Assembly (NCBI GenBank): GCA_963802255.1
Contig: CAWDHY010000002.1
Span: 83,984 to 147,983 of the forward strand
DNA: 64,000 nucleotides
From: Candidatus Magasanikiibacteriota bacterium
GTDB lineage: Bacteria > Patescibacteriota > Patescibacteriia > Magasanikbacterales > GWA2-37-8
Direction: 5' to 3'
A program made the position numbers and the translations under genes. Positions 1,149-63,051 of this stretch are shown here, one piece after another (position 1 is the first letter of the stretch; the number at the start of each line of letters is the position of its first letter). The notes under the pieces were generated by a model. It was given only the letters and a program-made list of their open reading frames with translations, did no database searches and was not told the DNA's origin.

Positions 1149-2536
1149 TTCAATTTTATATGCACATCGTCAAGCGCAGAATCAGGCATTGGCGATGGTG
1201 CACCCATCATCAAATCCCGCGAATCACCGGTTTTCGGAAAAGCGATTACTTCGCGTACACTATCTTCGCCTTGGAGTAACATAAGCAAACGGTCCAGGCC
1301 CAAAGCAATACCGCCGTGAGGCGGGACGCCGTAAGTGAACGCTTCAAGCATATGGCCAAAACGCTCTTTAATATCGTTTCCATCCACGCCCAAAATCTCA
1401 AAAATCTTTTTTTGCAACTCGGCATTGAAAATTCTTAAGCTACCACCACCGACTTCACAGCCGTTCAAAACCAAATCATAACAGTATGCGCGGACTTTTT
1501 CCGGTTCGCTATCCAGCATCGGTAAATCTTCGTTCATCGGGCGTGTAAACGGATGATGCGCGCTAACCAAGCGATTTTCCGTTTCACTTTTTTCAAACAA
1601 CGGAAAGTCCACCACCCAGGCAAAGGCTAGTTCGTTATTATCAGTTTTGTCTTGGCGTAAATCCGGCTTGTCCGAATTATATTTGTCTTTGGCTTCGGCC
1701 CAGGTCAATCGTGGAAACGGTTGGGCCATAATTTTCTTTTCCGGATATAATTTTTCCACCAGTTCAATCATCGCCTGCTCCATGAGCTGAATAATATCTT
1801 CCTGACTCAAAAAAGACATTTCCAAATCCAGTTGAGTAAATTCCGGTTGGCGGTCACCACGCATGTCCTCATCACGAAAACAACGGGCAATTTGAAAATA
1901 TTTTTCTACCCCGCCTACCATCAGCAATTGTTTAAACTGTTGTGGCGACTGTGGCAAGACATAAAAACTGCCTTTATAAATTCTGGACGGTACCAGAAAC
2001 TCACGCGCGCCTTCGGGCGTGCCCTTGGTCAAATCCGGGGTTTCAATTTCCCAATAGCCTTTTTCGGAAAAATAATTACGCAAAAATAGATTCACGTTGT
2101 GGCGCATTTTCAGATTATTTTTCATGCGCTCGGAGCGCAGATCCAAATAGCGGTATTTCAGGCGCAGTTCTTCGCTTATTTCTTTTGTATCGCTATCCAC
2201 GGCGAACGGCATGGGTTCGGATGCGGTGATAATGGAAATTTCTTTAGCCAAAAGTTCAACCGTGCCGGTTGGCATATCCGGGTTGACCTGTTTGGCACCA
2301 CGCGCCTGCACAATGCCGCGAATTTCCAATAAATATTCCAAACGAGCGTCACGCATTGCTTCCAGGGATTTTTCATCCAGTTCCGCCGGCACGCCGACCA
2401 CTTGGATAATTCCCTCGCGGTCGCGCAAATCAAAAAACGCGATTTTACCCATATCACGACGGGCATTCACCCAGCCTTTGAGCAAAACTTCCTCCCCTAT
2501 TTTATCAACTGTTTCAGTTGTATAAATTCTATTCAT
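1145..2536 (-). CDS. aspS: Aspartate--tRNA ligase, short form without the GAD insertion domain (possibly non-discriminating)
   Basis: 463 aa with class II AspRS motifs QSPQQFKQLLMVGGVEKYFQIARCFRDEDMRGDRQPEFTQLDLEMSF and GGGSLRI. It is about 130 aa shorter than the usual bacterial AspRS. Confidence 0.8.
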   Translation of the reverse strand: MNRIYTTETVDKIGEEVLLKGWVNARRDMGKIAFFDLRDREGIIQVVGVPAELDEKSLEAMRDARLEYLLEIRGIVQARGAKQVNPDMPTGTVELLAKEISIITASEPMPFAVDSDTKEISEELRLKYRYLDLRSERMKNNLKMRHNVNLFLRNYFSEKGYWEIETPDLTKGTPEGAREFLVPSRIYKGSFYVLPQSPQQFKQLLMVGGVEKYFQIARCFRDEDMRGDRQPEFTQLDLEMSFLSQEDIIQLMEQAMIELVEKLYPEKKIMAQPFPRLTWAEAKDKYNSDKPDLRQDKTDNNELAFAWVVDFPLFEKSETENRLVSAHHPFTRPMNEDLPMLDSEPEKVRAYCYDLVLNGCEVGGGSLRIFNAELQKKIFEILGVDGNDIKERFGHMLEAFTYGVPPHGGIALGLDRLLMLLQGEDSVREVIAFPKTGDSRDLMMGAPSPMPDSALDDVHIKLK

Positions 2537-5321: not shown

Positions 5322-5451
5322 ACCTGCCCTCCTTTTTTCTTTTACAATCAAGACCGATTTTTTCCGAAGATTGTCCGAGATTATATCTTATTAGAAAAAA
5401 ATGTCAAATTTTTACAATATATAATTAATAATGAAATTATTTTTACAAAAT

Positions 5452-5488
5452 AAAAAAATCCCCGGCTCTATACCGGAGATTTTTTTAA
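5452..5488. terminator. Stem-loop terminator between the orphan gene and tsf
   Basis: ATCCCCGG-CTCTATA-CCGGAGAT hairpin flanked by A7 and T7 runs. Confidence 0.5.
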
Positions 5489-5495
5489 AATTTAT

Positions 5496-6350
5496 TTATT
5501 TCATCTGTTCAGCTACTTCTGCCGCAAAATCACACTGTTTCTTTTCAATCCCTTCTCCTAACTCATAGCGCCAAAACGCCACGACAGTTGCACCCGCTTC
5601 TTCAGCTAATTTGCCGACGGTTTTTTCTTCGTCCTTAACATACGGCTGTTCCAAAAGACAGATTTCACCGTAATACTTGTCCATCTTTCCTTTGACAATA
5701 TTTTCAATGATATTTTCCGGTTTTCCTTGCGCGCGCAATTGTTCTGAAGCAATCTCTTTCTCCTTGTTAATTTCTGTCGCATCAACTGATTCACGGTTCA
5801 AATATTTCGGATTGGCTCCGGCGATATGCATGGCGATATCTTTTGCCAGATCTTCATTTCCTCCGGCCATTTTTACCAAGACTGAAATTTTTCCACCCAT
5901 ATGAATATAACTGCCGATGATTTCCCCTTCTCCTGCCTCAACAACCTGGAGACGGCGTAAAATTATCTTTTCACCGATTTTTGTAACAGCTTCATTAAAT
6001 TTGTTCTGAAGTTCCGGGATAGCCATTGCCTCTTCAACTGTGGCCGGTTTTTCTTTTACGGCGATATCAGCAATTAAATTAACCAAATTCTTAAAGTCAT
6101 CACCTTTTGCCACAAAATCAGTTTCAGCATTTACTTCAATAACCGCGGCTACATTGCCAGCCACTTTAATTGCTGTTAATCCTTCCGCCGCAATTTTATT
6201 ATCTCTTTTCGCCGCTTTGATAATCCCTTTTTTACGCAAAATTTCCGTGGCCTTTTCCATATCTCCTTCTGACTCATCTAAAGCCTTCTTACAATCCATC
6301 ATCCCTGCGCCGGTCATTTCGCGCAATTTTGTAATGTCTTGAGTTGTCAT
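5496..6350 (-). CDS. tsf: Elongation factor Ts
   Basis: MTTQDITKLREMTGAGMMDCKKALDESEGDMEKATEILRKKG is the canonical EF-Ts N-terminus. The true start is taken at the internal Met (ATG at 6350), not the upstream in-frame extension in the ORF track. Confidence 0.9.
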   Translation of the reverse strand: MTTQDITKLREMTGAGMMDCKKALDESEGDMEKATEILRKKGIIKAAKRDNKIAAEGLTAIKVAGNVAAVIEVNAETDFVAKGDDFKNLVNLIADIAVKEKPATVEEAMAIPELQNKFNEAVTKIGEKIILRRLQVVEAGEGEIIGSYIHMGGKISVLVKMAGGNEDLAKDIAMHIAGANPKYLNRESVDATEINKEKEIASEQLRAQGKPENIIENIVKGKMDKYYGEICLLEQPYVKDEEKTVGKLAEEAGATVVAFWRYELGEGIEKKQCDFAAEVAEQMK

Positions 6351-6410: not shown

Positions 6411-7193
6411 TTAGTCGGAACCTTCTTTTCTTATCGCTCTTCGTGGCTGAGGTTTTTCAATCTCAGGTTTTTTCTCATCTTTTGGCGCTTCCATCTTTTT
6501 TCTTTCAAATTCCTTTTTACCTTCGTTTATCGCTTCAGCCAAAAGATCGGCCATAATTTTAATTGAATTTACCGCGTCATCGTTTGCCGGAATCGGATAG
6601 TCCGCGTCATGCGGGTTAACATTGGTATCGCAAATGCCGATTACCGGTACATGCCTGCGGGTTGTCTCCGCTAAAGCGGTCTTTTCCGTGCGCATATCGG
6701 CGATATATATTGCATCCGGCATTTTTTCCAAATTAGACAGACCAACCAAATATCTATCCATTTTTTCCAAATCTTTTTTGAATTTTACCTGTTCTTTTTT
6801 GGTGTATTTTTCAACTTCTCCTGAAGCCATTTGTTCGTGCATGCTGTGATATTTTCTCAACCGGCGTTTTACTTCTTCAAAATTGGTTAAAAGTCCGCCG
6901 ATCCATCGTTCAACTAAATATGGCATCCCGCAAGAATCAGCTGCGGCTTTTATCAAGTCGCGGGTCTGGCGTTTGGTGCCGACAAATAAAATAACCTTGC
7001 CTTCAGCGGCGAGGTTCTTCGCGTAATCAAGAGCCTTCTCGAGCATTTCGAGAGTTTTCTCCAGATCAATAATATGAATTCCCCCGCGAGCGCCGTATAT
7101 ATACGGTTGCATTTTGGGGTGCCAACGGGATTTCTGATGACCAAAATGAATTCCGGCTTTCAGTAAATCCAGCAAAGACGGTAGCTTTGACAT
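6411..7193 (-). CDS. rpsB: 30S ribosomal protein S2, with a Lys/Glu-rich C-terminal tail
   Basis: MSKLPSLLDLLKAGIHFGHQKSRWHPKMQPYIYGARGGIHIIDLEKT is the canonical S2 N-terminus. The start is taken at the internal Met (7193). The rpsB-tsf operon order is conserved. Confidence 0.9.
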   Translation of the reverse strand: MSKLPSLLDLLKAGIHFGHQKSRWHPKMQPYIYGARGGIHIIDLEKTLEMLEKALDYAKNLAAEGKVILFVGTKRQTRDLIKAAADSCGMPYLVERWIGGLLTNFEEVKRRLRKYHSMHEQMASGEVEKYTKKEQVKFKKDLEKMDRYLVGLSNLEKMPDAIYIADMRTEKTALAETTRRHVPVIGICDTNVNPHDADYPIPANDDAVNSIKIMADLLAEAINEGKKEFERKKMEAPKDEKKPEIEKPQPRRAIRKEGSD

Positions 7194-31178: not shown

Positions 31179-33746
31179 TTACTTCAATATCCGCCGTAAG
31201 TAAAAACCTGTGTAACTGCCGGCTTTTCTCGCCAGCTCTTCAGGCGTACCCGTCGCCACCACTTGACCGCCTTTATCTCCGCCTTCCGGGCCCAAATCTA
31301 TCACCCAGTCGGCATTTTTAATTACATCCAAATTATGCTCAATCACTATTATAGTATTTCCTTGTGAAACTAAACGCTGTAAAACTTCAAGTAATTTTCT
31401 CACATCATCATAATGCAGTCCTGTTGTCGGTTCATCCAGTAAATACAAAGTTCGCGTATGCCCGTATTTAGATAATTCCTTAGATAATTTTATCCGCTGA
31501 GCCTCACCGCCCGATAGCGTGGTAGCCGATTGCCCTAACGTAAGATAATCCAATCCGACCTCACTTAACATTTTTAGTTTATCGCTAATTTGCGGAATGT
31601 CTTTAAAAAATGTTTTTGCTTCAGCCACAGTCATTTTCAATATATCAGAAATATTCTTACCTTTAAAATGGACTGCCAACGTTTCCTGATTAAATCTTTT
31701 ACCTTTGCAAACATCGCAAATAATTTCCACACTCGGTAAAAAATGCATCTCAATTTCAAGTGTCCCGCGTCCTTCACAGTTTTCACATCTTCCGCCGGGA
31801 ACATTGAAACTGAACCGCCCCGGGCCGAAGCCGCGCATCCGTGATTCCGCGGTTGCAGAAAACAGTTCACGAATGTGATCAAAGGCCTTTGTATAGGTAG
31901 CCGGATTTGAGCGTGGTGTCCTGCCAATAGGACTTTGATCAATGGTAATAATGCCGTCAAGATACTCACTGCCGGTAATGGATTTAATTTTCCCCGCCGG
32001 CTTATTCATTCTAAAAAAACGATTCTGCAAATTGCGCTGGATGATATCGTGCATCAAAGTTGATTTTCCCGAGCCGGATACTCCGGTTAAACAAACAAAC
32101 CTACGCAATGGAATTTCAACATCAATATTTTTTATATTATGTTCGGCCGCACCTTTAATTTTTAATTTTGGAGTTGCGCCGTCAACTTTGCGTCGTTTCT
32201 CAGGTAAATCAATCTTTTTCTCCCCTCGTAAATATTGGCCAGTGAGAGATTTGACCGGGTCACCAAGGTATTCATGTTTTTTACCTTTTGTATCCGGCGT
32301 TAATATTCCTGCCAAAGGTCCTGAATAAACAATTTCTCCACCATGTTTACCGGCTCCCGGCCCAATATCCACTATCCAATCACTTGTCAGTATAGTGTCT
32401 TCATCGTGCTCAACGACAATAATCGTATTGCCGATATCGCAAAGATTACGCAACGTTTTAACCAGTTGCTCGTTATCTTTTTGGTGTAGCCCGATTGTCG
32501 GCTCGTCTAAAACGTATAACGCTCCGACTAGCCGGGTGCCAACTTGGGACGCCAGACGGATACGTTGAGCCTCACCGCCCGAAAGCGTTCCAGCGCGGCG
32601 TTCAAGAGTCAAATAATGCAAACCGACGTTAAACATAAAATCTAAACGATTATTAACCTCGCGAACAACTGCTCCGGAAATCTCCCTTTCTTTTTCCGCC
32701 AGATTATTTTCCAGATGACCAAAAAATTCCCGCGCTTCAGAAATCGTCATGGACGCAATCTCCCAAATATTTTTATTATAAACGCGCACGCTTAAAGCGT
32801 TGTCGTTAAGACGCTTACCCTGACATTTAGGACAAACTTCCTCGCTAAATAATTCTTTGGTGCCAAGGCCGGTACAAGCTTCGCAATATCCGTAAGGGCT
32901 GTTAAAACTAAAAAGGCGCGGCTCTATTTCCGGAAAACTGAAACCATCATGCGGACATGAATATTCGGTGCTAAAAATTCTTTCTTCCCTGTCAGGAAAA
33001 ATTACACTAATAAGCCCATTGGATAAATCAACCGCTGTTTCGATTGACTCAGATAACCGCTGTTCTGTTTCTTTGTCATTTTTTAATTTCTCGGCGCTGT
33101 CAAACAAAATCCGGTCAACCACCACCTCGATAGTATGTTTATTATTTTTTGATAAAATCACCCGCTCCCGCAAACTGTAAAATTTTCCGTCGATGCGCAC
33201 TTCGGCAAAGCCGGAATTATATAAATCATAAAGCATTTGATAATATTCTCCTTTTCTACCACGCACTACCGGCGAAAGAATAATTAGTTCGCGTATTTTT
33301 TTGCCGTCAGCGCTTGTCCGCGATACAATCTGTTCTTTTATTTCGTCCGAAGTCATCCGCTCAATTTTATGTCCGCAAATCGGACAGTATGGCGTGCCAA
33401 CGCGCGCAAAAAGCACGCGCAAATAATCATATATCTCGGTAATGGTGGCGACCGTGGAACGAGGGTTGGCGCTATGCGCTTTTTGGTCAATGGAAATGGC
33501 CGGCGACAAACCTTCAATTTCATCCACATCCGGTTTTTGCATCCCACCCAAAAATTGCCGGGCATAGGCGGAAAGTGATTCTACATAACGGCGTTGGCCT
33601 TCGGCAAAAATAGTATCAAACGCTAAAGAGGACTTGCCCGATCCGGACAGTCCAGTGAACACAATCATTTTGTTGCGCGGAATCTCAAGATTAATATTTT
33701 TAAGATTGTGTTCCCGCGCCCCTTTGATTATTATTTTTTCCTGCAT
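31179..33746 (-). CDS. uvrA: Excinuclease ABC subunit A, compact form (855 aa)
   Basis: [65 protein letters not shown]. Two ABC ATPase modules and zinc-finger Cys clusters. Confidence 0.95.
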
Positions 33747-33751
33747 GTATT

Positions 33752-34124
33752 TGTCATTCTGAGCGAAGCGAAGAATCCCTTAACTCCATTCTTCACTCAA
33801 ATCTTTCCACTGTGGATTAACAGTTTTTATCAAATTTGCCTTTTTCATCCTCAACCAGCCCTTTATTGTTTTTTCTCTCGCAATCGCATTATTTATGTCA
33901 GAAAAATATTCATAGTATACTAATCTTTTGCAACCATATTTTTTTGTAAATCCCTCAATCAAACCCTGCTTATGTTCGGAAATGCGTCGTTCCAAATTGT
34001 TGGTGACGCCAACATAAAGCGTACCGGTAGCGCTTGACAAAATGTATACGTAAAAATTGTAATTCCGCATATTTTTACGCAAGGGATCCTTCAGTCGCCC
34101 TTTTAGGACTCCCTCAGGATGACA
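33752..34124. mobile_element. Putative small mobile element: a GIY-YIG nuclease gene bounded by inverted TGTCATYCTGAG...CTCAGGATGACA repeat arms of the same family as the MITE-like repeats elsewhere in the window
   Basis: Left arm 33752..33779 tgtcattctgagcgaagcgaagaatccc abuts the ORF stop. Right arm 34082..34124 agggatccttcagtcgccc...ctccctcaggatgaca is the reverse-complement version, 11 nt upstream of the ORF start. Confidence 0.5.
33780..34070 (-). CDS. Small GIY-YIG nuclease family protein (YhbQ/COG2827-like)
   Basis: MRNYNFYVYILSSATGTLYVGVTNNLERRISEHKQG is a GIY-YIG motif. The start is taken at the internal Met (34070), because the upstream in-frame extension lies inside the repeat arm. 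Confidence 0.7.
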   Translation of the reverse strand: MRNYNFYVYILSSATGTLYVGVTNNLERRISEHKQGLIEGFTKKYGCKRLVYYEYFSDINNAIAREKTIKGWLRMKKANLIKTVNPQWKDLSEEWS

Positions 34125-34202
34125 TGGTGAACGATAGCCAAAAGCCCCGGCATCTTGCGATACTAGGGGGTCATAAAACAATACCTATATTTTCTCACAC
34201 TG

Positions 34203-36338
34203 TCAATGTTTCTTCAATTCTCTTACCTCATCCCGCAAAATCGCTGCCAGTTCAAATTCCAAATTCTTGGCCGCTTCGCGCATTTGCTTTTCTTTGTCTT
34301 TGATAATTTCCGCAATCGGGCGCGCGTCACCGATTGTATCTAGTTTCGCGATTGACTCGGCTTGTTTTTGCCGGAATGATTTCTTATTTTTATCTTTTGT
34401 AGAAGTAATTCCAAACTCTTCCAAAATATTTCTGATAGTCTTTTCAATCGTCTTTGGCGTAATTCCATGTTTCATATTATACGCCAGCTGAATTTTCCGG
34501 CGTCTTTCCGTTTCGCGGATGGCACGCTTAATTGAGCCTGTTATTTCGTCGGCATATAACACTACCAGCCCGTTGATATTGCGGGCGGCACGCCCGATTG
34601 TTTGGACAAGTGATGTGGTGCTGCGCAAAAAACCTTCTTTATCCGCGTCTAAAATTGCCACAAAAGAGACCTCAGGCATGTCTAAACCTTCCCGCAACAA
34701 ATTCACGCCGACAATCACGTCAATATTACCACGGCGCAAATCGGTAATAATTTCTATGCGCTCAACCGTCTTGATGTCGCTATGCAAATATTTTACTTTA
34801 ACTTTTTTCTTCTCAAGATACTCTGATAAGTCTTCAGCCATTTTTTTTGTGAGCGTTGTCACCAAAACCCGTTCTCCTTTTTTGACGCGCTCATCAATAC
34901 GGATAAGCAAATCTTCGATTTGGGATAGATGCGGTTTGTCATCCTGAGCGTTAGCGAAGGATCCCTCGATGGTAGATTTAAGGGATTCTTCACTTCGCTG
35001 CGCTTCGTTCAGAATGACAGACGAACCCGCTCGCCCCGTAACCGGGCGAATGATTACTTCGGGGTCAATTAAACCTGTCGGGCGAACAATTTGTTCAGCC
35101 ACCTGACGGCTTGCAAGAATTTCATATTCATCAGGCGTGGCTGACATGTAAATTGTTTTATCTGTTTTGCTTTCAAATTCAGCGTAATCAAGAGGCCGGT
35201 TATCTCTGGCAGAGGGCAGCCTGAAACCGTGTTCAATTAAGACATCCTTCCGCGATTTATCGCCGGCGTACATTCCGCGTATTTGCGGTACGGTTACATG
35301 CGATTCATCGATAATTGTCAAAAAACGGCCCCGATCCCCTGTTTTTTCAGTCCCATATAAAAAATAATCCAACAGGGTGAAAGGCGGCTCACCTGAAATG
35401 CGTCCGTCAAAATGTCGAGAGTAATTTTCTATGCCGTTACAGTAACCAATATTTTTTATCATTTCCAAATCATAATTCGTCCGGCGTTTCAGCCGTTCGT
35501 ATTCCAATACTTTTCCTGCTTTTTCAAATTTTTTGAGCTGTGATTTTAATTCTTCACGAATTTCTTTAAACGCTGTCTCTTTTACTCCCTCATCAACTAC
35601 ATAATGTTTTGACGGAAAAAGCCACAGATCACTTTGTGTTCTGACAACTTTTCGCGTAATTGGATCAATTACTTCAATATATTCAATTTTTTCCGAAATG
35701 CCAAAACGATAAATTTTTTCTTCATTTACCGGCATTATTTCAAATACCTGCCCATGAAGACGAAACGAACCGCGCTTTAAATCGGAATTTGTTCTTTCAA
35801 ATTGCATATCAACCAGCTGCTTCAACATATCCCTGCGATTTAGCGCGTCGTTAACCGACAAGTGCAAAACAATTTTTTCATATTCTTTCGGCGAACCCAA
35901 GCCGTAAATAGCGGAAACTGAAGCAACAATTATTACATCACGGCGCGTAAGCAAGGCTTGCGTGCAGGCGTGACGCAGACGATCAATTTCGTCATTAATC
36001 ATCGCCTCTTTTTCTATATAAGTATCCGTATTTGGTAAATATGCTTCCGGCTGATAATAGTCATAATAGGAAACAAAATATTCGACCGCGTTTTCCGGAA
36101 AAAATTCACGGAACTCATTACAAAGCTGGGCAGCCAAAGTTTTATTATGCGCTATTACCAACGTCGGCATTTGAACTTTTTCAATTACGCTTGCGGCTGT
36201 AAATGTCTTGCCTGAACCGGTAACGCCAAGCAAGGTTTGTTTATCAAACCCCTTATTTAAACCATCGACCAATTGGTCGATGGCCTTGGGCTGATCTCCA
36301 GCCGGTTTGTATTTTGAATGCAATTTAAATGCAGACAT
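34203..36338 (-). CDS. uvrB: Excinuclease ABC subunit B, carrying an in-frame repeat-element insertion
   Basis: GVTGSGKTF Walker A, helicase motifs and a C-terminal UVR motif. A stretch of about 27 aa (RAGSSVILNEAQRSEESLKSTIEGSFANAQDDKPH) lies where other UvrB have ...IDPEVEVRP-TKGQIDDL... Confidence 0.9.
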   Translation of the reverse strand: MSAFKLHSKYKPAGDQPKAIDQLVDGLNKGFDKQTLLGVTGSGKTFTAASVIEKVQMPTLVIAHNKTLAAQLCNEFREFFPENAVEYFVSYYDYYQPEAYLPNTDTYIEKEAMINDEIDRLRHACTQALLTRRDVIIVASVSAIYGLGSPKEYEKIVLHLSVNDALNRRDMLKQLVDMQFERTNSDLKRGSFRLHGQVFEIMPVNEEKIYRFGISEKIEYIEVIDPITRKVVRTQSDLWLFPSKHYVVDEGVKETAFKEIREELKSQLKKFEKAGKVLEYERLKRRTNYDLEMIKNIGYCNGIENYSRHFDGRISGEPPFTLLDYFLYGTEKTGDRGRFLTIIDESHVTVPQIRGMYAGDKSRKDVLIEHGFRLPSARDNRPLDYAEFESKTDKTIYMSATPDEYEILASRQVAEQIVRPTGLIDPEVIIRPVTGRAGSSVILNEAQRSEESLKSTIEGSFANAQDDKPHLSQIEDLLIRIDERVKKGERVLVTTLTKKMAEDLSEYLEKKKVKVKYLHSDIKTVERIEIITDLRRGNIDVIVGVNLLREGLDMPEVSFVAILDADKEGFLRSTTSLVQTIGRAARNINGLVVLYADEITGSIKRAIRETERRRKIQLAYNMKHGITPKTIEKTIRNILEEFGITSTKDKNKKSFRQKQAESIAKLDTIGDARPIAEIIKDKEKQMREAAKNLEFELAAILRDEVRELKKH
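34937..35019. repeat. MITE-like imperfect palindromic repeat (about 83 bp) inserted inside the uvrB reading frame
   Basis: tgtcatcctgagcgttagcgaaggatccct ... agggattcttcacttcgctgcgcttcgttcagaatgaca. The arms are reverse complements of each other and of the arms at 33752 and 34124. Confidence 0.65.
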
Positions 36339-47233: not shown

Positions 47234-49720
47234 TTAGATCACTATGCTGACCAGTTTTCCTTTTACATAAATTACTTTCTTCGGTTCTCTTCCGTTAAGC
47301 CATTTTTGCACCTTTTCACTTGTCAGAGCCAAATCTTTGGCTTCCGATTCAGATATTTCCGCCGAAACTTCCAAAGTATCACGCAATTTGCCATTAACCT
47401 GTACAGCCAGAGTAATTTCAGAATCTTTTGCCAATTTTTCATCGTATTCCGGCCATTTTTCCAGAGCCAAACAGGATTTACAACCAAGCGTCTGCCAAAT
47501 TTCTTCACACATATGCGGGGCAAAAGGCGATAATATTAAAATCAGCAAACCATAATATTCACCGCTTATTTTTTCTTCCTTTGATATTTCATTTATCAGC
47601 TCCATCATCTTCGCAATCGCGGTATTAAAGCGTAGTGACTCAACATTGTGCGTTACTTTTTTGATAGTTTGATGCATTATCCGTGTCATTCTTTCCGGCA
47701 CCGTATATTCAGAATCAATTTTTTCCTGTAAATGCCAGATACGCTCCAGAAATCTGCGGACACCTTTAACCCCATTAGTGTCCCAGGGCTTATCCGCTTC
47801 AAGTGGCCCCATGAACATCTCATAACAGCGCATTGTATCAGCGCCAAATTCTTCAACCACATCTGTCGGATTTATCACATTACCCCAGCGTTTACTCATT
47901 TTATGATTATCTTCGCCCAAAATCATACCTTGATGGCGATGCTTCAAAAACGGTTCGTCAAAATCAATATAACCGGCGTCAAATAATACTTTTGTAAAAA
48001 ATCGGGCATACAAAAGATGGCTGTTAACATGTTCCGGACCACCCAAATAAAAATCCACGGGCATCCATGTTTTAAGGGATTCAGCGGAAGCAAATGCTTT
48101 GTCATTATGCGGGTCAAGATAGCGATAAAAATACCAGCTGGAACACATAAAAGTGTCCAGTGTATCCGGTTCACGATGCCAGCCTTTACCATATTTTTTC
48201 TCAACGCCCTTGTTAAAACTTTTTGAATAATTTAAAGGCGATTCACCGGTTGGCTTAAAATCAACATCATCGGGTAAAATTACCGGTAAATCTTCTTCCG
48301 GCACCGGATGTAATTCATTTTTATCGTCATAAAGAACCGGAATTGGCGCGCCCCAAAATCGCTGACGTGAAACAGACCAGTCGCGGAGTTTGTATTGGAT
48401 TTTTCGTTTTCCCTTCCCCTCTTTTTCCAGCCAATCAATAATTTTTTTTGATGCCTCTTTGGTAGATAGACCGTTTATGAAACCAGAATTAATTGAGACG
48501 CCTTCGCCGGTAAAACATTTTTTTTCAGCGCCCTCCTGGATTCCCGCCTGCGCGGGAATGACAACTTCTGTAATCTCCAAACCATATTTTTTGGCAAACT
48601 CAAAATCACGCTCATCATGAGCCGGAACGGCCATAATAGCACCAAAGCCATAAGAAGCCAAAACATAGTCGGCGATAAAAACCGAAACTTCTTCATTGTT
48701 GACTGGATTAATAGCCTTAACACCTTTCAGCTCTACGCCGGTCTTATCTTTTTGTGTCTGACGATCAAGGTCGGTTTTTAATTTTGTTTCGTTTATATAT
48801 TTTTCAACTTCATCCCAGTTTTGAATCTTATCTTTCAATTTATCTAACAACTTATGCTCTGGCGCTAAAACCATAAAAGTAGCGCCAAACAAAGTATCCG
48901 GACGGGTGGTAAAAACTTCAATTGTCATCCCCGACCCGGTCGGGGATCCAGAGGGTGACTGGATTCCCGCCGGAGCCTGCCCTCGACTACGATCGGGGGC
49001 GGGAATGACATTAAACGAAACCTCAGCGCCTTCACTGCGCCCGATCCAATCCTTCTGCCGTTTCTTTGTTTCTTCCGGCCAATCCAGTTTATCCAAATCA
49101 TTTATCAGCCGGTCGGCATAATCGGTAATTTTTAAATACCACTGTTCCATTTCGCGCTGTTCAACAATAGTTTCGCAACGCTCACACTTGCCATCTGTGG
49201 TCACTTGCTCATTGGCAAGAACCGTCTTGCATGAATCACACCAATTTACAGACTGTTTTTTTCGGTAGGCCAAACCGCGTTTGTAAAACAAAAGAAAAAA
49301 CCATTGCGTCCATTTATAATAATCCGGATTATGAGAACCGACTTCCCTACCCCAGTCGGCTGAAACTCCGAGCACCTTTATCTGCCGTCTAAACATATCT
49401 ATCGCCTGGTCGGTGCTTTTTCGTGGGTGAACATTAGTTTTAATCGCATAATTTTCCGCCGGCAAACCAAAAGCATCCCAGCCAATCACCTGCAAGACTT
49501 TTTTACCCGTCATACGCTTATAGCGGGCAAAAATATCACAAGCAGTATAAACTTCGGCATGGCCGACATGCAGGCCCGAGCCGGACGGATACGGCAACTG
49601 TGGCAAAATGTAATATTTATCGCCGCGCGAGGCGTCAATTGGCGTTTGGAAGATTTTTTCTTTTTCCCAGCGTTTCTGCCATTTTTTTTCAATTTTCGCC
49701 GGATTGTATGAATTGCCCAT
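47234..49720 (-). CDS. leuS: Leucine--tRNA ligase, carrying two in-frame repeat-derived insertions
   Basis: MGNSYNPAKIEKKWQKRWEKEKIFQ...PYPSGSGLHVGHAEVY...KMSKRWGN. The odd PAPDRSRGQAPAGIQSPSGSPTGSGMT and VIPAQAGIQEG segments correspond to palindromic DNA repeats. Confidence 0.95.
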   Translation of the reverse strand: MGNSYNPAKIEKKWQKRWEKEKIFQTPIDASRGDKYYILPQLPYPSGSGLHVGHAEVYTACDIFARYKRMTGKKVLQVIGWDAFGLPAENYAIKTNVHPRKSTDQAIDMFRRQIKVLGVSADWGREVGSHNPDYYKWTQWFFLLFYKRGLAYRKKQSVNWCDSCKTVLANEQVTTDGKCERCETIVEQREMEQWYLKITDYADRLINDLDKLDWPEETKKRQKDWIGRSEGAEVSFNVIPAPDRSRGQAPAGIQSPSGSPTGSGMTIEVFTTRPDTLFGATFMVLAPEHKLLDKLKDKIQNWDEVEKYINETKLKTDLDRQTQKDKTGVELKGVKAINPVNNEEVSVFIADYVLASYGFGAIMAVPAHDERDFEFAKKYGLEITEVVIPAQAGIQEGAEKKCFTGEGVSINSGFINGLSTKEASKKIIDWLEKEGKGKRKIQYKLRDWSVSRQRFWGAPIPVLYDDKNELHPVPEEDLPVILPDDVDFKPTGESPLNYSKSFNKGVEKKYGKGWHREPDTLDTFMCSSWYFYRYLDPHNDKAFASAESLKTWMPVDFYLGGPEHVNSHLLYARFFTKVLFDAGYIDFDEPFLKHRHQGMILGEDNHKMSKRWGNVINPTDVVEEFGADTMRCYEMFMGPLEADKPWDTNGVKGVRRFLERIWHLQEKIDSEYTVPERMTRIMHQTIKKVTHNVESLRFNTAIAKMMELINEISKEEKISGEYYGLLILILSPFAPHMCEEIWQTLGCKSCLALEKWPEYDEKLAKDSEITLAVQVNGKLRDTLEVSAEISESEAKDLALTSEKVQKWLNGREPKKVIYVKGKLVSIVI
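48538..48563. repeat. Partial palindromic repeat (one TGTCATTCCC terminus plus the ATTCCCGC/GCGGGAAT palindrome) in-frame in leuS
   Basis: ggattcccgcctgcgcgggaatgaca. Encodes VIPAQAGIQ on the coding strand. Confidence 0.5.
48923..49010. repeat. MITE-like 88-bp palindromic element with TGTCATYCC/GGRATGACA termini, inserted in-frame in leuS
   Basis: tgtcatccccgacccggtcggggatcc...ggattcccgccggagcctgccctcgactacgatcgggggcgggaatgaca. Contains two internal sub-palindromes. Encodes a segment of about 27 aa where E. coli LeuS has about 7 aa. Confidence 0.6.
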
Positions 49721-51396: not shown

Positions 51397-51489
51397 TGTC
51401 ATCCTGAATAAAATGAAAAATCTGTAATCTGTGATCCCGCATTCGCGTGAATGACAAGTAAAAAGATTCTTCGCTTTGTCCAGAATGTC
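51397..51489. repeat. Intergenic cluster of MITE-like repeat copies (one element with TGTCATCC...GAATGACA termini plus a degenerate family-A arm)
   Basis: tgtcatcctgaataaaatg...gatcccgcattcgcgtgaatgaca, then agattcttcgctttgtccagaatgtca. Confidence 0.45.
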
Positions 51490-51632
51490 AAGTATTTATG
51501 GAACTAATTCATCAATTCTATTAACTAACGATTGTACCAATTGTCACAATATAAAACGGATGAACTACTTATAATATACCTCTTTTATGGCTTTTGTCAA
51601 GAGTGTAACCCAATATTTCATCATATCTTAGC

Positions 51633-51657: not shown

Positions 51658-54600
51658 GCTAATCGATCGCTGGCGGTGTTTCAGCTGGAGGAGTTTCAGG
51701 AGCGGGTTCAGGTGGCGGTGTTTCAGCTGGAGGAGTTTCAGGAGCGGGTTCAGGTGGCGGTGTTTCAATTACTGGTTCAACAACCGGTTCCGTTTCTTCC
51801 GGTTCAATAATTGGTTCATCGACCACCGGATCGGATGGTTCCGGATCATCTGAAGGAGAAAGAGGAGCCGTCACTCCACCATCTCCTCCAGTTGATTCCG
51901 GTATCGTTACCGGAATATCTGAACTAACTAAATCATTACTTATTTTACGTTTGGCGATCACCATCCAGTCAAACGATGCATTTGATGTACCGCCGTCTAA
52001 CTCTTTCACTTTAAAACCTTGTGCCGTCTTTTCAATCACCGCTACACCTTTTGCTTCAATGGAAGTCAAAGTAACACTGACTTTTATCGGAGCAGATTCA
52101 TCAATAATTTCCTGTGTGTCCGTGGCAAAAGTAATTATTGCTTCACCCATCTCTAAGACACCAGCTCCAGAAAGCGTAATCTCAGCCAATTCTGATGCCA
52201 TGCCATAAATATTTTTTTCACCCTGGCTGGTCGTCACTCTTGCGATAAGCAAACCATTTTCATCAATAGACCAGCTGTTATTTTTACCAATAATTTTTAA
52301 AACATTTAATATCGCATTTCCGGCTAAATCTAAAGCTCCGGTACCGGAATATGAAATAGTTCCTCCGCTCGCGCCAACACTTAAATCACCCGGATCAGTA
52401 CCAATATCAATACCTGTTTCAGCGGCAATAATCTGCACCTGTTGTTCCAGTTTTGCCGCTGCTTCTGTCTTGTTGTATACCCAACCCGTACGAATTAAGG
52501 TAATAATTTTTCCATCTGTAGAAACACCGGAATTTTCAAGCGCGATACCAATAATACCCACAACTTTTCGTGAATTGTCCACTTTTGGATCATATTTCAT
52601 CGCCTTTCCCGGTTCTGAAGCGGATACGAGCAAATCACCGCGCGATATTTCTCCATTTTCTAGAGAATATTTAACCGGCACCCGTCCAACCATTGCGAGC
52701 GGAGCTGTCTGGTCTGTTTTTCCATTGCCCACGATAATAGTTGGATTGGTTGAAATAACACCGGCCACTGTCGGCTCATAAGCAATGTTTGATTTTTGAT
52801 ATCTGTCCGCAGATGTCGGGTCTACCATCATCACATCACCGGCTTCAACTATTTCAGCCGGATTAATATCCACTTTTTCCGCCAAATCTCCAGGATTAGT
52901 GGAAGTACCAAGCACTGCGGATGCGGCATACATATTTCCGGCGCTGTGGACATCGCCATTTGCTGATACTGAAAAGACAGGATTGTTATTTGAGCGGAGA
53001 GATAAAATATAATTATCAGCCGTTGAAGTGTTAAAATTCAAAGCGTTGAAGATGAATGCGCGGGTGCCGGGGGTCGAGATGACTGAAGATTCAAAGATGG
53101 TGGAGGTAGAGAAAGAAAGCTTGTGGCCGGAAACAGCGCTCTCGGCTGTGGCCAGGAAATTAACATCACCGGTCAGATTGAGAGTATATGGTTCGGAGGC
53201 GGAACCGATGGTGAGCGACTGAGTTGAGGTAACGACATCAAAAGCCGTGTCCAGAGGTTCAATTATGTTTTGCTGGGCTTTAGCGACTTCGGTGAGGAAA
53301 CCGACATAATGGTCGTAATCTAAAGTAAGATACGGGTGCTCTTCATCACCTGATTGAGTAACTAGCTCGGGTAATACAGCTTGAACTTCCTGAGCAATCA
53401 TACCAACTTGACGCGATGTCGTCGCCGATTCATAACCCGGCTTGGAAGTGTCCCAGAAATAATATACACCGCGCAAACTCTTTAAAGCTTCGAGTACATC
53501 AAGAGAACCGGAAATGTCAGTAACATCCGTCTTAACCTCCTCGTCGGAATTTGTACAAGTAGTACCTGAGTAGAGCAAGCCGGCAGTACTAATACAAATA
53601 TAGTAGGCATTGGCTTTCTCTTTCCAATAGTATACATCGGCATTAATGTTACCAAGATAAATATCGTAAGTTGTTGATGCAACTGCATTACCCCCAATAG
53701 CAGTAGAGTATAAAGCATTTGCAGAGGTGTTATACCCAAGTGCTAAAGTATAGTTCGCGTTTGCATCAGAATCATAACCAACTGCAATAGCGTCGATTCC
53801 ATTCGCATAAGCGGCGTACCCTAACGCCAACGAATTGAGCCCCAGCGCACTGGCGCCATTACCGATCGCCGTGGCGTAGTCATCATCCACTTGAGCATCC
53901 GTACCTACTGCGGTAGCACCATTAACCTCTATACCAGTATCAACACTATACCCGATTAATACATTATTATCGGTTGAGGTTACATGGCTACCGACGCCAG
54001 TACCAATGGCAACGTTATATGCACCGCTATCATTATTTAATATTGCATCAGCACCTAAGGCGATATTGCCCGTCGCCAAGGAACCATATCTCATTGCCCT
54101 CGCTCCAATCAAAGTATTTGAAGTTCCTGTAAGTTCATAACCTGCTTCATTTCCTAGGGCGGTATTATTATTACCAGTTGTATTAGTATACAAAGCACTA
54201 TAACCAATAGCGGTGTTGGCATTGCCGACAGTAATTTGATAACCTGAGCGATAACCCAACGAATTATTTTTCTCGCCTGAACGAAGGTTCGCCATAGCAT
54301 CCATGCCAATGCCTACCGTATTCGCCATCCCAAAGTTCGTATTAGTTAACGCATTACGCCCAATTGCAATATTACCGTCAGTGGACGTGACACCGAATAG
54401 TGCCATGTAACCTATACCGATATTATTATTGCCGCTAATATTCGAAGTCAAAGAGTAGTTCCCCAATGCGACATTGTAATCACCGCTTGTATTTGCGTCC
54501 AACGTTCCATAACCTATAGCGGTGTTTTCCATTCCATTAGTGTTCGACATTAAAGCCGAGCCTCCGACAGCGGTGCTCATTAACCCCGTAGTATTATCGC

Positions 54601-56299
54601 GAAGCGACCAAAACCCAACAGCTGTGTTAAATAATCCGGTAGTATTAGCATTTAATGAACGATAACCAACTGCGGTATTAGAAGCGGCGGTGTTGTTCTG
54701 CAGGGCTTCATACCCAACTGCCACGTTGGCATAAGAAGACGTGTTGTTCAATAGAGACCTGCCCCCCAACGCTACATTATACGAACCGGTTATATTATCG
54801 CGTAAAGCGGCGCGGCCAAGGGCGGCGTTGTCAGCGCCCGTAGTATTGTAAGGCATGGTGCCATAACCGACAGCGGTATTGCTATCTCCCGTGACTGACG
54901 CTAAAGCCGCGGCTCCAAGAGCGGTATTATAATTGCCCGTAGCAGTAATCATGGCCGAAGCTCCGACGGCAGTATTTGCATTACCAGTGCTATTTAGAGA
55001 AAGCGCTTCAGAACCAAATGCGGAATTGGCGACACCGGTGGTGTTGCCGCGCATGGCTTTGTAACCGACTGCCGCGCTGGAAGTACCGGTGGTGTTGCTG
55101 TACAACGACTCATAACCGACGGCAGTGTTAGAAGCGGCAGTGTTAAACATCAACGCAGAATAACCGATGCCCACATTCCCCCAATTGGTTGTGAGTGTTG
55201 CCAACGCTCCAACACCGACTCCAACGTTTCTTGAGCCACTCGTTAAACCATATAACGAACCTATACCCACATTTTCATTGCCGCTGGTATTAAGATAAAG
55301 TGAATTATAACCAAAAGCAATATTAGAATTGCCGGTAGTATTTGCTGTTAACGCATTTGTACCGACCGCAGTATTCCAGCTCGCGGCGTATCCGGTATTG
55401 CTATACAAAGCTTTGGACCCAACAGCTACATTACCAACTCCTTCATCATTGGCGTATAATGCTTGATAACCAAGCGCGGTATTATTCATTCCTCTGCCTG
55501 ACAGCAAATTCACTTTATTATTATATAATGCTTGATAACCGACGGCGGTTGAAGAAGGACCGACTTCATTAAAAAGCGCTTGATAACCGACTGCGACATT
55601 GGCATTATGGTCAGATGAAGTGCCGATAGCCAAAGCGTTATAGCCCAAAGCAACATTAAAAGAACCATACAAATTACTATAAAGCGCATAATTTCCTAAA
55701 GCAATATTACTACTCCCTGTAATATTTTGAGGAAGCGTAGTGTCGCCTATTGCCGTATTTCCTTGCCCAGTGGTATTGGAATAAAGCGTCGTGTTACCTA
55801 TGGCAGTATTAGCTAAGCCAAGTGTATTTGAATACAATGCTGTATAACCAACTGCAGTATTGTTAAGACCAACGGTATTGGAATATAACGATCGATAACC
55901 AACTGCAACATTTCTTAAGCCCCCCATACCGCCAATTAAAGAATTAAAGCCATAATAATTATTCGCCAGAGCTTCGTAACCTATCGCCGTGTTTGAAGCC
56001 GCAGTATTTGAATACAAAGCGCCATAGCCGATAGCAACATTGGCCGGACTGCTTGTATTCGCGGTTAAAGATTTGTAACCAAAAGCGGTGTTGTAATACC
56101 CGCTTGTATTATTATATGCGGCGCTTACACCAAAAGCCGAATTACCATAACCGCTTGTATTATTCAATAAAGCTAGATAACCACTCGCGGTATTATTACC
56201 CCCAGTCATTGTTAAATTGCCGGAATTACCCACGAAATAATTATTTAGCGAGGTGGAAGCCATGGCAAAATTAACGTTGTTATATTTATAATAGGCCTC

Positions 56300-58000
56300 G
56301 GCCGATATATTTATACTTCCTTTTATGTCTACCTTATTAAGCGGGGTGGTGGTGCCGATGCCAACAAAGTCACCAATGCTGGTCAATCTCACCACCGAAC
56401 CGTCATCAGTCCAGCCACCAGATGTTGATATGGTAGAAGAATTTACCCAAGTCGGAGCAGCGGAAACGCCATTTGACATCAATACGTATCCAGCGGTACC
56501 CGCATCATAATTATTCCCCACTCTGATTGTACCCGTTACTGCCAAACTACCAGCGACAGATAAGTTAAACGCCGGAGTGGTGGTACCGATACCAACATTA
56601 CCACCGTTAAAATAAGAATTACCGTTGGCATTTAAATATATTTTTTCATCTGCATTACTATACATAGATAACAAACCCACTGTTGCGCCACTGGCATTTG
56701 TATGGTGGAGTTTAATAGCAATTCTATTATCATCCGTTCCGCTTAATAATATACCATCACCGCCGCTTGCCGATAAAACATGTAATTTGCTTGCTGGTGT
56801 GGTGGTACCAATGCCGACGTTACCGCCGTTAAAATATGACGCACCGGAACCGGCAACTTTAATATTTTCCGTGACACCTCCATATAATGATAGATAACCG
56901 ATGTTGCCGCTGGCGCCATTATAATACATTTTTGCCGCCACGTTGCTATTTCCGCTCAATAATATGCCATCGTTATCGCTGGTGACATTTACCTGTAATT
57001 TATTTGATGGAGTGGTCGTACCGATACCAACATTGCCACCAGTGAAATATGAATCACCTAAAGCGGTAATTACTGTTCTTGTAGCATTGGCCTCATATAA
57101 ATTCAGGCTACCTGCTGAGTTTACAGCGCTGGAATTTATCCAATTCAACTTGGCAACGAGTTGATCATAGCGCCCACTTAAAAAAATACCGTCATATTGC
57201 GTGTCTGTAAGAACATGTAACTTAGCTGCCGGAGTTGTCGTACCGATACCAACATTGCCACCATTAAAATATGACACACCTGAACCGGCAACTTTAACAT
57301 TTTCCGTGACGCCTCCATATAATGATAGATAACCGATATTGCCACTGGAACCATTATAATACATTTTTGCCGCCACGTTGCTATTTCCGCTCAATAATAT
57401 GCCATCGTTATCGCTAGTAACATTTACCTGTAATTTATTTGATGGGGTGGTCGTGCCGATACCAAAAACACTACTTACAAACGAACTACCTGTTGAACGC
57501 CCGGTCAATCGCACACTCTCAACACTGTTTTCAAAAACACTCATTCCACCAAATTCTAGACCGAGACCGGAATTATAGGAATTGCCTAATACAACATTCG
57601 GCGTGCCAGTTGGACTTAAAAGCACCACTCCATCACTCGCCGCTGCTTGTATCATTAATTTGTATGCCGGAGTTGTCGTACCAATACCAACATTGCCACC
57701 ATTAAAATATGACACACCTGAACCGGCAACTTTAACATTTTCTACGCCGCCTCCATATAATGATAGATAACCGATATTGCCGCTGGCGCCATTAAAATAC
57801 ATTTTTGCCGCCACATTGCTATTTCCGCTCAATAATATGCCATCGTTATCGCTGGTGACATTTACCTGTAATTTATTTGATGGAGTGGTCGTGCCGATAC
57901 CAACGCTATCAGTAATTGTCGTCAATCTCACCACCGTTCCATCATCTGTCCATCCGCCGGCTGAAGCGATTCCTAAAGAAGATGTAGCGATCCAAGTAAA
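56300..58000. repeat. Near-identical tandem repeats of about 400-435 bp inside the giant CDS
   Basis: The antisense ORFs at 56943, 57378 and 57777 begin with the identical peptide MLFPLNNMPSLSLVTFTCNLFDGVVVPIPTLPP. This reflects repeated GGNVGIGTTTP... coding modules on the sense strand. Confidence 0.6.
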
Positions 58001-61000
58001 ATTACTGCCGTTATAGGTTAACACATTTCCAACGGCTGATGGGGCGCTACTTGAAGCCAGATCAACCGGTGCAATTGAATTATTAATTATTTCACTTGAT
58101 CCAACCGCATTAGCGGATATGGTTAAAGCACCAGTGTTGGATATTGTTGCGTCACTGCTCATAGAAACAGCGGTTGCAACACCCGAGGCATTCCCAACCC
58201 AGATATATGCAGAGGCAAGAGCCGTGCTCATTAAACCGAGTGTTGAGGTGGAAACCCATGTTGGGGCACCGGCGGCATTTGACCTTAAAATCTGGCCGGA
58301 TGTGCCAACAGCGGTCGCCATATAAGATGTACCATTGGAATATGTTACTGAACCGGCTGCACCGATAGTTGAAGAGTTGGTACCGCCGCGTACGATAGGC
58401 AGAATCCCGGATGTAATTTGGCTGGCGGCAATAGCGATAGTATTTGTAGTAATAGAAGTAACGCGACCATAAGTATCAACTGTGATGTTCGGAGTGGTGG
58501 AAACTGAACCGTATGTTGATGCAGTGACGCCGGATGTAGCAAGACCAACAGTTGTAGCTGATGAACCATTATAGGAAAAAGTGGCAATGCCAGTACCTTG
58601 CGAAAGCGTGGCGTGAGTATGTGTAGAAGTGGAAAAAGTTGTTGAAGCAACCCAGGTGAATTGCGAATCTGAATTATACGCAAGCAAAGCCTGGTACGTC
58701 GGAGCGGTATTAGTCGCAGTTTTAAGCGGGGTGACTTTGCCGATGCCGATAGTTGGATTTGGATAGGTACCGGTCAGGTCTCCACCGGCAGCACCGGAGG
58801 CGGTGATGCCAAGAGTGGTGGTGTTGACCCACGACAAACCCGAACCGGTTGTCTGTAATATCTGACCATTACTTCCGGCACTGCCATTCGTTCGTAAAGC
58901 ACCGGTTAAGTTAGTGTCACCGGAAACAGTCAGTGGGTAACCTGGGGTCGTTGTATTAACGCCAACCTTTCCTCCCATAAGCGCAATCGTGTTGACTTGA
59001 GAAATTGTCGGATTATTCGTAGTACTGACATTCACTCCAAAAGAATAATTGCCACTGACAGTAAATGAGTTGCCAATAGCAACAGAGTTATAACCACTGG
59101 AAGTGACTGATTTGCCGATGGCATATGATTCATTGGTAACGACAGAGTTTCTACCAATAGCAACGGCGCCATAACCGCCGTAACCGGAAACAGTATTTTG
59201 ATAACCGATGGCCATGGAACTTTCTGAACCAGAAGCAATAATATTATCACGGCCAAGAACGACTGAATGATCACTATTTATCGTGTTATTATAACCAAAA
59301 ACCGAAGAATAATTACTGCCAACCGTATTATTTCTTCCTGATATTATTGAATACTGTCCGGTTGATGTATTGTATGCTCCGAAAATTGCTGTATATAACG
59401 CGCCGGAATTTACATTGTTATCACCAGCAGTAAACGCGTAATTTCCGCCGGAATTAATATTGTTGGAACCGAATACGGCTGAAAAACTACCACTTGAATC
59501 ATTGTCAGAACCTGCTACAAATGACGCCTGTCCGCTTGATGTGCTGTTATTGCCAATCGCAACGCTGGACAGACCAGTTGCTCTGGCATTATTACCGATA
59601 GCCGTAGCATAACTGTTTGAAGATTGCGCCTGATAACCTATGGCAACTGAATTAAGATTTTCCGCTGACGCAAGATTGCCAATCGCGATTGAATTATTAC
59701 TATAAGAATGAGCACCTGAACCCATGGCAATAGAACTGTAGCCGGATGCTATCGGAGAAGAACCGCCAATAGCTACAGCTAAATCATTTGTCGCCGCTGC
59801 TAAACTTCCCATGGCAATCGAATTCGTTCCTGTGGCCTGACTATTTAACCCCTGGACAAAGGATCCCGGCCCTAACGAAAAAGTATAGTTGTCGCCTACT
59901 GACAACGAACCAAGCGCGTTATCCCAAACAAGGGTATTTGTAGCATCAAAAAATCCGTCTGTATAAAATTGTATTTGTCCGTTTGCTCCGGCCGGTGAAG
60001 AAGTTGTATCTGTATCAGTGTCTACAAAACCAAGAGAAGATGTGGAAGACCAAGATAATATCCCACTTCCATTATTTAGTAAGACAGTATTAACATCGCC
60101 TTGAGTATCTGGCCAAAGATAAGGTATGCTCTTAATTCTTGTAATGTCGCCATCATCATCGACCCGGAATTGTTGTGACTCGCCGACATTTAATAACCCC
60201 GTTCCTGAATACGATGTCGTACCAATATTTAAACCGGGTAATATTGCCGATTTAGTCCATGCGGAAATAAATACTGTCGGTGCCACAGAGTTATTATATA
60301 AAGCTAAAAAGCCTGAGTGGTTACTGCCTATATTATAATGACCTAAAAATGTTGTTGGAGTTCCTCCCCCGGCAATAGATATTCCATCAAACAATCCGGC
60401 GCCAACAGTAGAATCAATAGTAAGTTTTGTTACAGGCGATGTAGTGTTAATTCCTACATTACCACCCATGAGAGCAATAATATTATTACCGGAAATTGTT
60501 GCCGGCGCTGTACTCGTGGCGTTAATGCCAAAAGAATAATTTCCACTAACTGTCATGTCATAACCAAAAGCTACAGAGCCGATTCCACTCACTGTATTAT
60601 TGTATCCGCCACCTATAAACGAGCCCCCGTTCGCACCACTAATATCATTGTAAGTTCCACCTCCAATAAACGAATTGGCCGCAAAGCCGCCGGTTGTATT
60701 AAATTGCCCGCCACCAATAAACGAATAATTCCCGGTTGCCGAATTTGAGTAGCCACCACCGATAAAACTATGATGGCTATCTATATTGTTGCTCTCGCCG
60801 GTGATAAAAGAATTTGAACCGCTATATGTATTGTTATAAATATTATTTGAGCTGCCAAAAACTCCGCTATTTTGTCCCGCGATGGTATTGTTGTAACCAA
60901 AAACATGAGAATAATCTGCCGTGACGGTATTGCTACCGCCCAAAGCGCTGGAATATGTTGAGGTGACATTGTTGAATCCACCGGCAACTAATACTGACTG

Positions 61001-61212
61001 CGCGGAATCAGTTAGATGATTGTTTGAACCAAAAACCGCGTTATATTGAGCGCTGGGGCTTAACAGTGAAGAACCAATGGTATTACCAAGACCTGTGATG
61101 ATTGAATAATATGCAGATGAAGTGTTCACCGCTCCGAACACCGCATTACCGGAACCGGCATCTTTATTTGATTCACCAGCAATAAAAGATGTGTAACCTG
61201 ATGCTAAATTAT

Positions 61213-63051
<1,839 letters not shown>

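Follow-up and report, generated by a model that had tools for sequence, protein, structure and literature searches.

A stretch of 64,000 nucleotides (nt) from a Candidatus Magasanikiibacteriota bacterium (contig CAWDHY010000002.1), here called the window, contains a small gene for a GIY-YIG nuclease in the 456-bp gap between uvrA and uvrB. The gene, which we call ssn, encodes a single-domain protein of 96 amino acids (aa), is located on the minus strand (33780..34070, with the ATG at 34070) and is bounded on each side by a repeat, which we refer to as an arm. The downstream arm, TGTCATTCTGAGCGAAGCGAAGAATCCCTT (33752-33781), is read on the plus strand, opposite to the gene, and its inner end overlaps the TAA stop codon. 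The upstream arm, TGTCATCCTGAGGGAGTCCTAAAAGGGCGACTGAAGGATCCCTT (34081-34124, minus strand), is on the coding strand and stops 10 nt short of the ATG. Relative to each other the two arms are inverted, and they have a common outer 12-mer, TGTCATYCTGAG, and a common inner 12 nt, GAAGRATCCCTT; the middle differs, with 6 nt in the downstream arm and 20 nt in the upstream arm. The whole arm-ssn-arm unit is 373 bp long. These positions confirm the original prediction, made from the sequence alone, that a GIY-YIG open reading frame (ORF) lies between inverted arms in the uvrA-uvrB gap. In the present analysis, we found that the ORF is probably a member of the Ssn family, GIY-YIG nucleases that act on single-stranded DNA (ssDNA), and that the arms are its likely cognate hairpins, equivalent to a known class of tagged palindromic repeats.

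The Ssn family was described by Chenal et al. in 2025 (Nat Commun; PMC11893778) as single-domain GIY-YIG proteins of about 94 aa (cd10448), with SsnA of N. meningitidis (NMB0047) as the prototype. The genes are flanked by hairpin repeats, called NTS (CGTCATTCCCGCGMAVGCGGGAATCYRG) in Neisseria and Ssn-related motif (SRM) in general, and 42% of the Ssn homologues are flanked on both sides (PMC11893778). In the window protein, Pfam PF01541 (GIY-YIG) covers residues 6-77 of the 96 (E=6.7e-18), and the sole other Pfam match, to T5orf172, is weak and overlaps it; in its size and in having no extra DNA-binding domain, the protein thus agrees with Ssn. We found 3289 homologues, and among the matches listed most are 94-98 aa long. 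In an alignment of 31 homologues (A1), Y19, R29 and E66 are invariant and Y9 is nearly so, in agreement with the catalytic residues of the Ssn family, although the equivalence with Neisseria Y6, Y17 and E64 was mapped by motif and not by direct alignment. The same alignment contains a motif, L-I-x-x-x-N-P-x-W-x-D-L, at residues 80-91, C-terminal to the Pfam match, in which L80, N85, P86 and W88 are invariant and I81, D90 and L91 nearly so. This motif could be a family-specific DNA-recognition element. A hidden Markov model search of the 64 kb gave the gene as the single Ssn-like ORF (E=1.3e-52; the runner-up had E=0.15). A second ORF of 96 aa (2176..2466) was considered as another copy and was rejected, as it is not GIY-YIG.

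The association of the gene with the repeat extends over many phyla. We analyzed 80 loci coding for homologues with 52-69% identity. The sequence GTCAT[CT]C was present on the coding strand within 200 bp upstream of the gene at 50 of 78 loci (64%) and on the opposite strand within 200 bp downstream at 43 of 77 (56%), against an expected rate of about 0.033 per 200 bp, calculated from sequence more than 500 bp away from the gene. Both arms in the same geometry as in the window, where hairpin motifs flank the gene 5' and 3' as described for Ssn, were found at 33 of 75 loci. At many loci there were several tandem arms on one side, or none. In a Burkholderiaceae locus (L059), the canonical NTS, TGTCATTCCCGCGCAAGCGGGAATCCA, is present on both sides of the homologue. 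GIY-YIG homologues elsewhere thus carry arms, and the condition that the original prediction had set for its own refutation did not refute it. The unit was proposed there as a candidate autonomous parent element; it corresponds to the NTS-ssnA-NTS arrangement of the Ssn family (PMC11893778), so that the locus is largely explained by existing work and the gene-plus-repeat arrangement itself is not new. The two systems are alike in the protein (a single GIY-YIG domain in about 94-98 aa), in the inverted hairpins on both sides, in the start of the repeat, (C/T)GTCAT, and its end, AATC(Y), and in the dispersal of the repeat through the genome; the window copy at 48536-48563 is very close to the NTS consensus. 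They differ in the host, which here is Magasanikbacteria-like and belongs to the candidate phyla radiation, a group not mentioned in the text of PMC11893778, in the tandem G.A mismatch of the window's flanking arms, which escape the SRM pattern, and in the presence of several copies in frame within essential genes, whereas NTS are rarely intragenic in Neisseria.

The arms are also similar to the CGTC- and TGTC-tagged repetitive extragenic palindromes (REPs) reported by Di Nocera et al. in 2013 (PMC3733652), a group to which Neisseria dRS3 and Rickettsia RPE-4 and RPE-6 belong. These REPs have the same tag, unpaired, a stem that begins with the pairs A-T and T-A, a short loop and a short C-rich tail, are mostly arranged as inverted dimers, and have copies inside uvrA, uvrB and tRNA-synthetase genes (PMC3733652). 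Every arm in the window reads TGTC-AT...AT-C(C/T), as in the tagged REPs, and the upstream arm is such a module, an SRM or TGTC-tagged REP with a 20-nt insert in the loop. In contrast to the arms, no enzyme gene was found in association with the REPs of that work, and their four families have uninterrupted stems of 8-9 bp, whereas in the main class described here two positions are non-Watson-Crick and the loop is 3 nt long.

Folding of the arm as a hairpin is supported by covariation. We compared 59 distinct arms of 28 nt that adjoin ssn genes; the only selection criteria were position and the invariant GTCAT...ATC. The nine-pair hairpin had a covariation score of 0.399, against 0.155 for shuffled sets (none of 500 shuffles reached 0.399), and slid partners scored at most 0.17. 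Compensatory changes were observed at seven of the nine pairs, and the stem variants ATTCT/AGAAT, ATCCT/AGGAT, ATTCC/GGAAT and ATCCC/GGGAT interchange. Positions 10-20 and 11-19 were non-standard in 41 of the 59 arms; in the class found in the window they are G.A and A.G. Arm pairs fold well as ssDNA, with z = -3.1 and -3.9 for the pair in uvrB (34937..35019). The published SRM search pattern, HGTCWYN(0-2)YYVSBRHN(0-5)WNVSBRGN(0-2)RNCYNB (PMC11893778), matched the window only at 48536-48563, one of about nine arms, and gave gene-adjacent matches at 8 of the 80 homologue loci, whose proteins are 53-64% identical to that of the window; L059 is one of them. These loci provide an indirect link between the window protein and the published family. 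The pattern misses a widespread arm class with conserved tandem G.A/A.G (CYGAGCG...CGARG).

Several points weigh against the identification of the ORF as Ssn and of the arms as its cognate repeats. Both flanking arms fail the SRM search pattern, because the pattern demands a continuous stem and theirs contains the tandem G.A/A.G; three features that are critical for cutting and binding (PMC11893778) are kept in both arms, namely, the GTC tag, a stem initiated by AT and a C right behind that stem. Folded alone, the flanking arms gave only -1.9 and -5.3 kcal/mol, with z near 0. There are two stem classes of arm in the window and only one ssn gene, so that the arms of either class can be called no more than possible cognates, and a second enzyme may exist elsewhere in the genome. 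As for the protein, size, domain composition, conserved residues and the geometry of the flanking repeats make it a probable Ssn. No Neisseria protein was present among the homologues listed, including those from a search seeded with the Burkholderiaceae homologue, and the closest solved structures, which were the sole significant matches, are UPF0213 proteins, a sister GIY-YIG family. Furthermore, binding and cutting by the window protein are predicted solely from the enzymes of Neisseria and Wolbachia.

Each arm is a self-contained module of about 28-45 nt, consisting of an unpaired TGTC tag, a stem starting with AT, a loop in which inserts are tolerated, and ATC(Y)C at the close. Ssn proteins purified from Wolbachia and from three species of Neisseria bind the repeat only as ssDNA and cut a few nucleotides 5' of it, on the motif-carrying strand only (PMC11893778). 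If the window protein is an Ssn nuclease with the arms as its targets, it would likewise bind the folded hairpin only on ssDNA, as occurs in replication, repair or DNA uptake, and its cut would fall a few nucleotides 5' of the tag. As the arms are inverted and the tags face outward, one cut site per strand is predicted just outside the arm-ssn-arm unit.

Arms are also present elsewhere in the window. The 12-mer TGTCATYCTGAG, with at most one mismatch, occurs five times, against 0.33 expected (none of 100 shuffles reached five), and a structural scan for GTCAT followed by a 5-bp stem and a closing C gave 11 matches, against 0.98 +/- 0.92 in dinucleotide shuffles; with counts so far above those of shuffled sequences, chance similarity of the arms was rejected. 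The arm pairs were located by pattern and structural scans. A gapless inverted-repeat search of the whole window detected no arm pair, because the arms differ by insertions and deletions. An 83-bp inverted arm pair without an ORF is present in frame inside uvrB (34937..35019), in a stretch that adds about 30 aa (RAGSSVILNEAQRSEESLKSTIEGSFANAQDDKPH). An 88-bp inverted pair of the perfect-stem class is present in frame inside leuS (48923..49010), where it codes for part of VIPAPDRSRGQAPAGIQSPSGSPTGSGMT and coincides with a 22-residue gap relative to the solved T. thermophilus LeuS (1h3n). leuS also contains a single arm, TGTCATTCCCGCGCAGGCGGGAATCCAG (48536..48563, minus strand), with an 8-bp stem and a folding energy of -9.2 kcal/mol. 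Between genes, at 51397..51490, two or three arm remnants form a degenerate cluster, which was missed by the structural scan. At least five of the about nine window arms are intragenic. The original prediction, that the arm next to ssn also ends palindromes inside uvrB and leuS and recurs near 51400, was correct as to the presence of arm pairs in both genes; the leuS copies, however, have a perfect G+C-rich stem (TGTCATYCCCG...), a stem variant other than that of TGTCATYCTGAG, and the sequences near 51400 are arm-related but form the degenerate cluster. Two further observations concern this part of the window. The structural arm scan also picked up TGTCATTCTTTCCGGCACCGTATATTCAGAATCAA (47685-47716, plus strand) within leuS; this sequence may be a further diverged leuS arm or a chance match. 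A very large ORF of 3217 aa with a GTG start (51659-61312, minus strand) adjoins the degenerate cluster.

The insert in uvrB is absent from relatives P0123 to P0138 in an alignment of UvrB (A2). In one relative (L083), a diverged orthologue of the arm pair is located at the codon that carries it in the window, and more distant relatives have other arm-like UvrB inserts, in the loop that carries the insert in the window and elsewhere. Among related Patescibacteria, UvrB varies in length from 667 to 803 aa. The proteins differ in the in-frame inserts of at least three loops (A2 columns about 367-415, 520-563 and 608-623), and many of these inserts hold peptides typical of translated arms, for example, VILSGAKDL, SAPRNDN and VVTRSERRL. 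Rickettsia palindromic elements are similarly frame-preserving palindromes that add a peptide loop to essential proteins; however, RPE-1 is longer, about 150 bp, and its original description included no flanked nuclease gene.

Metagenomes provided a wider sample of the repeat. A scan with TGTCATYCTGAGCGAAGCGAAGRATC yielded 120 loci. Only 2 of 107 testable arms had an ssn ORF within 250 bp; thus, the repeats greatly outnumber the genes, as with REPs. Of 122 arms, 45 formed inverted pairs, which were 63-179 bp long (median near 88 bp), and 28 were located in stop-free frames of at least 250 codons. The spacers within the pairs were unrelated to one another. Conservation ends exactly at the T of TGTCAT on one side, the tail being T or C and then C, and outside the arm there is a pyrimidine preference at position -1 and nothing else. 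The original prediction took the unit for an autonomous parent of short derivatives, in the manner of miniature inverted-repeat transposable elements (MITEs). The part of this proposal that stood is the architecture of an ORF with arms across phyla, together with ORF-less pairs, varied contexts and an empty site (see below). The part that did not is the role of the arms: they behave as REP-like modules of about 28 nt, often in tandem and with unrelated spacers, and not as the terminal inverted repeats of one master MITE.

The genes around the unit were compared in relatives. In the window, uvrA (31179..33746; 855 aa) is downstream of ssn and uvrB (34203..36338; 711 aa) is upstream, both identified by Pfam and both on the same strand as ssn. 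Relatives keep the gene order cpn10-cpn60-(membrane protein)-uvrB-uvrA, with uvrC next in L081, where the contig reaches that far. The linkage of uvrA and uvrB, a pair described as usually unlinked in the original prediction, is thus conserved in the lineage and is not a peculiarity of this locus. A promoter-like site, TTGACA-17 nt-TATTGT (34178..34206, minus strand), overlaps the uvrB stop codon, and identical hexamers are found in L081, there too overlapping the uvrB stop; this site is probably the promoter of ssn and uvrA. Next comes a hairpin with a GCAA loop and a T-run (GACCCCCTAGTATCGCAAGATGCCGGGGCTTTTGG), which is almost identical in the window (34130-34206, minus strand), L081 (about 7035-7120) and L083 (about 6225-6280). 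This hairpin could be a uvrA leader element or a uvrB terminator; a search of window positions 33000-35500 against Rfam gave no match. The arm-ssn-arm unit is located within the leader of uvrA, on the downstream side of this conserved promoter-like site. In L083, an opposite-strand ORF of 241 aa without a Pfam match (5374-6099) is present between uvrB and the uvrA leader, and it is absent from the window and L081.

The site between the leader hairpin and the uvrA start has three states in this lineage. It holds the ssn unit in the window, it is empty in L083, where ...GGCTTTTTTACTTGGACAC is joined directly to ATGCAGG, and in L081 it is occupied by an 88-bp ORF-less arm pair, TGTCATTGCGAGCGAAGCGAAGCAATC...GCAATGACA. 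The boundaries of the inserts were read by eye, as MAFFT misplaced the 3' end. Moreover, two close relatives have the arm-ssn-arm unit, in the same arm geometry as in the window, at unrelated places: in L084 its neighbors are dnaK and dnaJ, one on each side, and in L085 it follows a methyltransferase gene. The proteins of L084 and L085 are 76% and 79% identical to that of the window, and the downstream arm of L085, TAAGGGATTCTTCGCTTTGCTCAGAATGACA, is nearly the same as that of the window. One possible explanation of these differences is that the unit is an autonomous transposon resembling an insertion sequence (IS), with Ssn as the transposase and the ORF-less arm pairs mobilized in trans through single-stranded intermediates. 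The three contexts, the empty site and the ORF-less pair at one position, the uvrB pair missing from P0123 to P0138, the sharp end of conservation at the T of TGTCAT, the vast excess of arms over genes and the frequency of inverted pairs of similar size all fit such an element, and the IS-like layout of NTS-ssnA-NTS was itself remarked on by Chenal et al., as a hypothesis only (PMC11893778). However, no direct repeat was found beside the L081 insert or the window unit, and none was seen at the uvrB pair, so that the comparison of empty and occupied sites suggested in the original prediction gave the expected states but not the target-site duplication. Many loci have no arm or several tandem arms on a side, the spacers are mutually unrelated, the arms of the window and L081 differ widely at their common site, there is one ssn copy in 64 kb, and no transposase was linked to these repeats by Di Nocera et al. 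(PMC3733652). The transposon is a hypothesis for two further reasons. Ssn cuts only the motif strand, which for an inverted pair gives one cut per strand. Furthermore, GIY-YIG enzymes hydrolyze DNA and, to our knowledge, none has been shown to transfer or join strands. On balance, we regard the transposon as possible but doubtful.

In its layout, the locus is a gene-plus-repeat system like that of REPs and the RAYT transposases. In REP/RAYT systems and REPINs (Bertels and Rainey 2011, PMC3116915), a single-copy nuclease gene is likewise located between inverted hairpins, inverted pairs are dispersed, target-site duplications are absent, and the substrate is ssDNA. RAYT, however, belongs to the HUH tyrosine transposases (IS200/IS605 family) and acts through a covalent DNA intermediate, and its repeats have a GTAG tag. 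With a GIY-YIG enzyme and a TGTC tag, the window locus is not a member of this group, and the likeness is in layout alone.

An alternative possibility could be that the system serves the host by controlling incoming DNA. Ssn would cut repeat-bearing ssDNA during natural transformation and shape recombination in this way, and the repeats would be kept for that role. This is the sole function shown in vivo for the family: knockout of ssnA in N. meningitidis increased transformation 5-fold, and the effect required intact NTS repeats (PMC11893778). The occurrence of ssn as a single-copy gene within a DNA-repair operon, downstream of the conserved promoter-like site, would also agree with a host function. 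However, nothing in the window bears on competence, and the in-frame copies in essential genes and the shifting position of the gene fit selfish spread more easily. In addition, only 2% of NTS are intragenic in Neisseria (PMC11893778), whereas in the window this is true of at least five of the about nine arms. We therefore consider this role for the window locus unlikely, slightly more so than transposition.

Another candidate function was that of a free-standing GIY-YIG homing endonuclease or an accessory to nucleotide excision repair. The catalytic domain is common to I-TevI-type enzymes and UvrC, the former are likewise linked to mobile DNA, and the gene is positioned inside the uvrB-uvrA-uvrC cluster. 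The only NCBIfam match was to a group I intron endonuclease, at 22.3 bits, but this is far under the cut-off of 56. I-TevI-type enzymes have separate DNA-binding domains, cut double-stranded DNA, and are found in introns or free-standing without flanking hairpins, whereas the window protein has 96 aa and lacks a DNA-binding domain. There is no intron and no split host gene at the locus, relatives have the uvr cluster without ssn, and close homologues are found in unrelated contexts. On these grounds both functions were rejected as very improbable, and the Ssn assignment is preferred.

The arms have also entered the annotation of homologues. The database entry for the window protein itself (P0001; 33780-34181, minus strand) begins at a TTG, is 133 aa long and includes the upstream arm in its reading frame. 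Most homologues begin at ATG, and P0071, P0083 and P0014 have arm-encoded heads or tails (...EDPSLRSG, ...SNSARDDK and MSPDEVGAIEESL...). Arms are often mis-annotated as coding sequence.

The locus is a candidate phyla radiation member of a nuclease-plus-repeat system that was characterized only in 2025. It offers a natural experiment, in which one site is empty, holds a repeat pair, or holds the nuclease unit, and the in-frame repeat pairs in uvrB and leuS, absent from close relatives, add to it. The G.A class of repeats missed by the published pattern matters for surveys and for choosing pairs of Ssn and target as ssDNA-cutting tools. The locus also bears on a question left open in 2013, when no dedicated transposase was found for the CGTC/TGTC-tagged REPs (PMC3733652), namely, what spreads these repeats. 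Tentatively, and with the odds against it, Ssn might be the missing mobilizer, acting as a ssDNA transposase whose arm pairs insert in frame into essential genes of candidate phyla radiation bacteria. If this is true, the arm-ssn-arm unit would be an autonomous element, and the pairs in uvrB and leuS would be its in-frame insertions.

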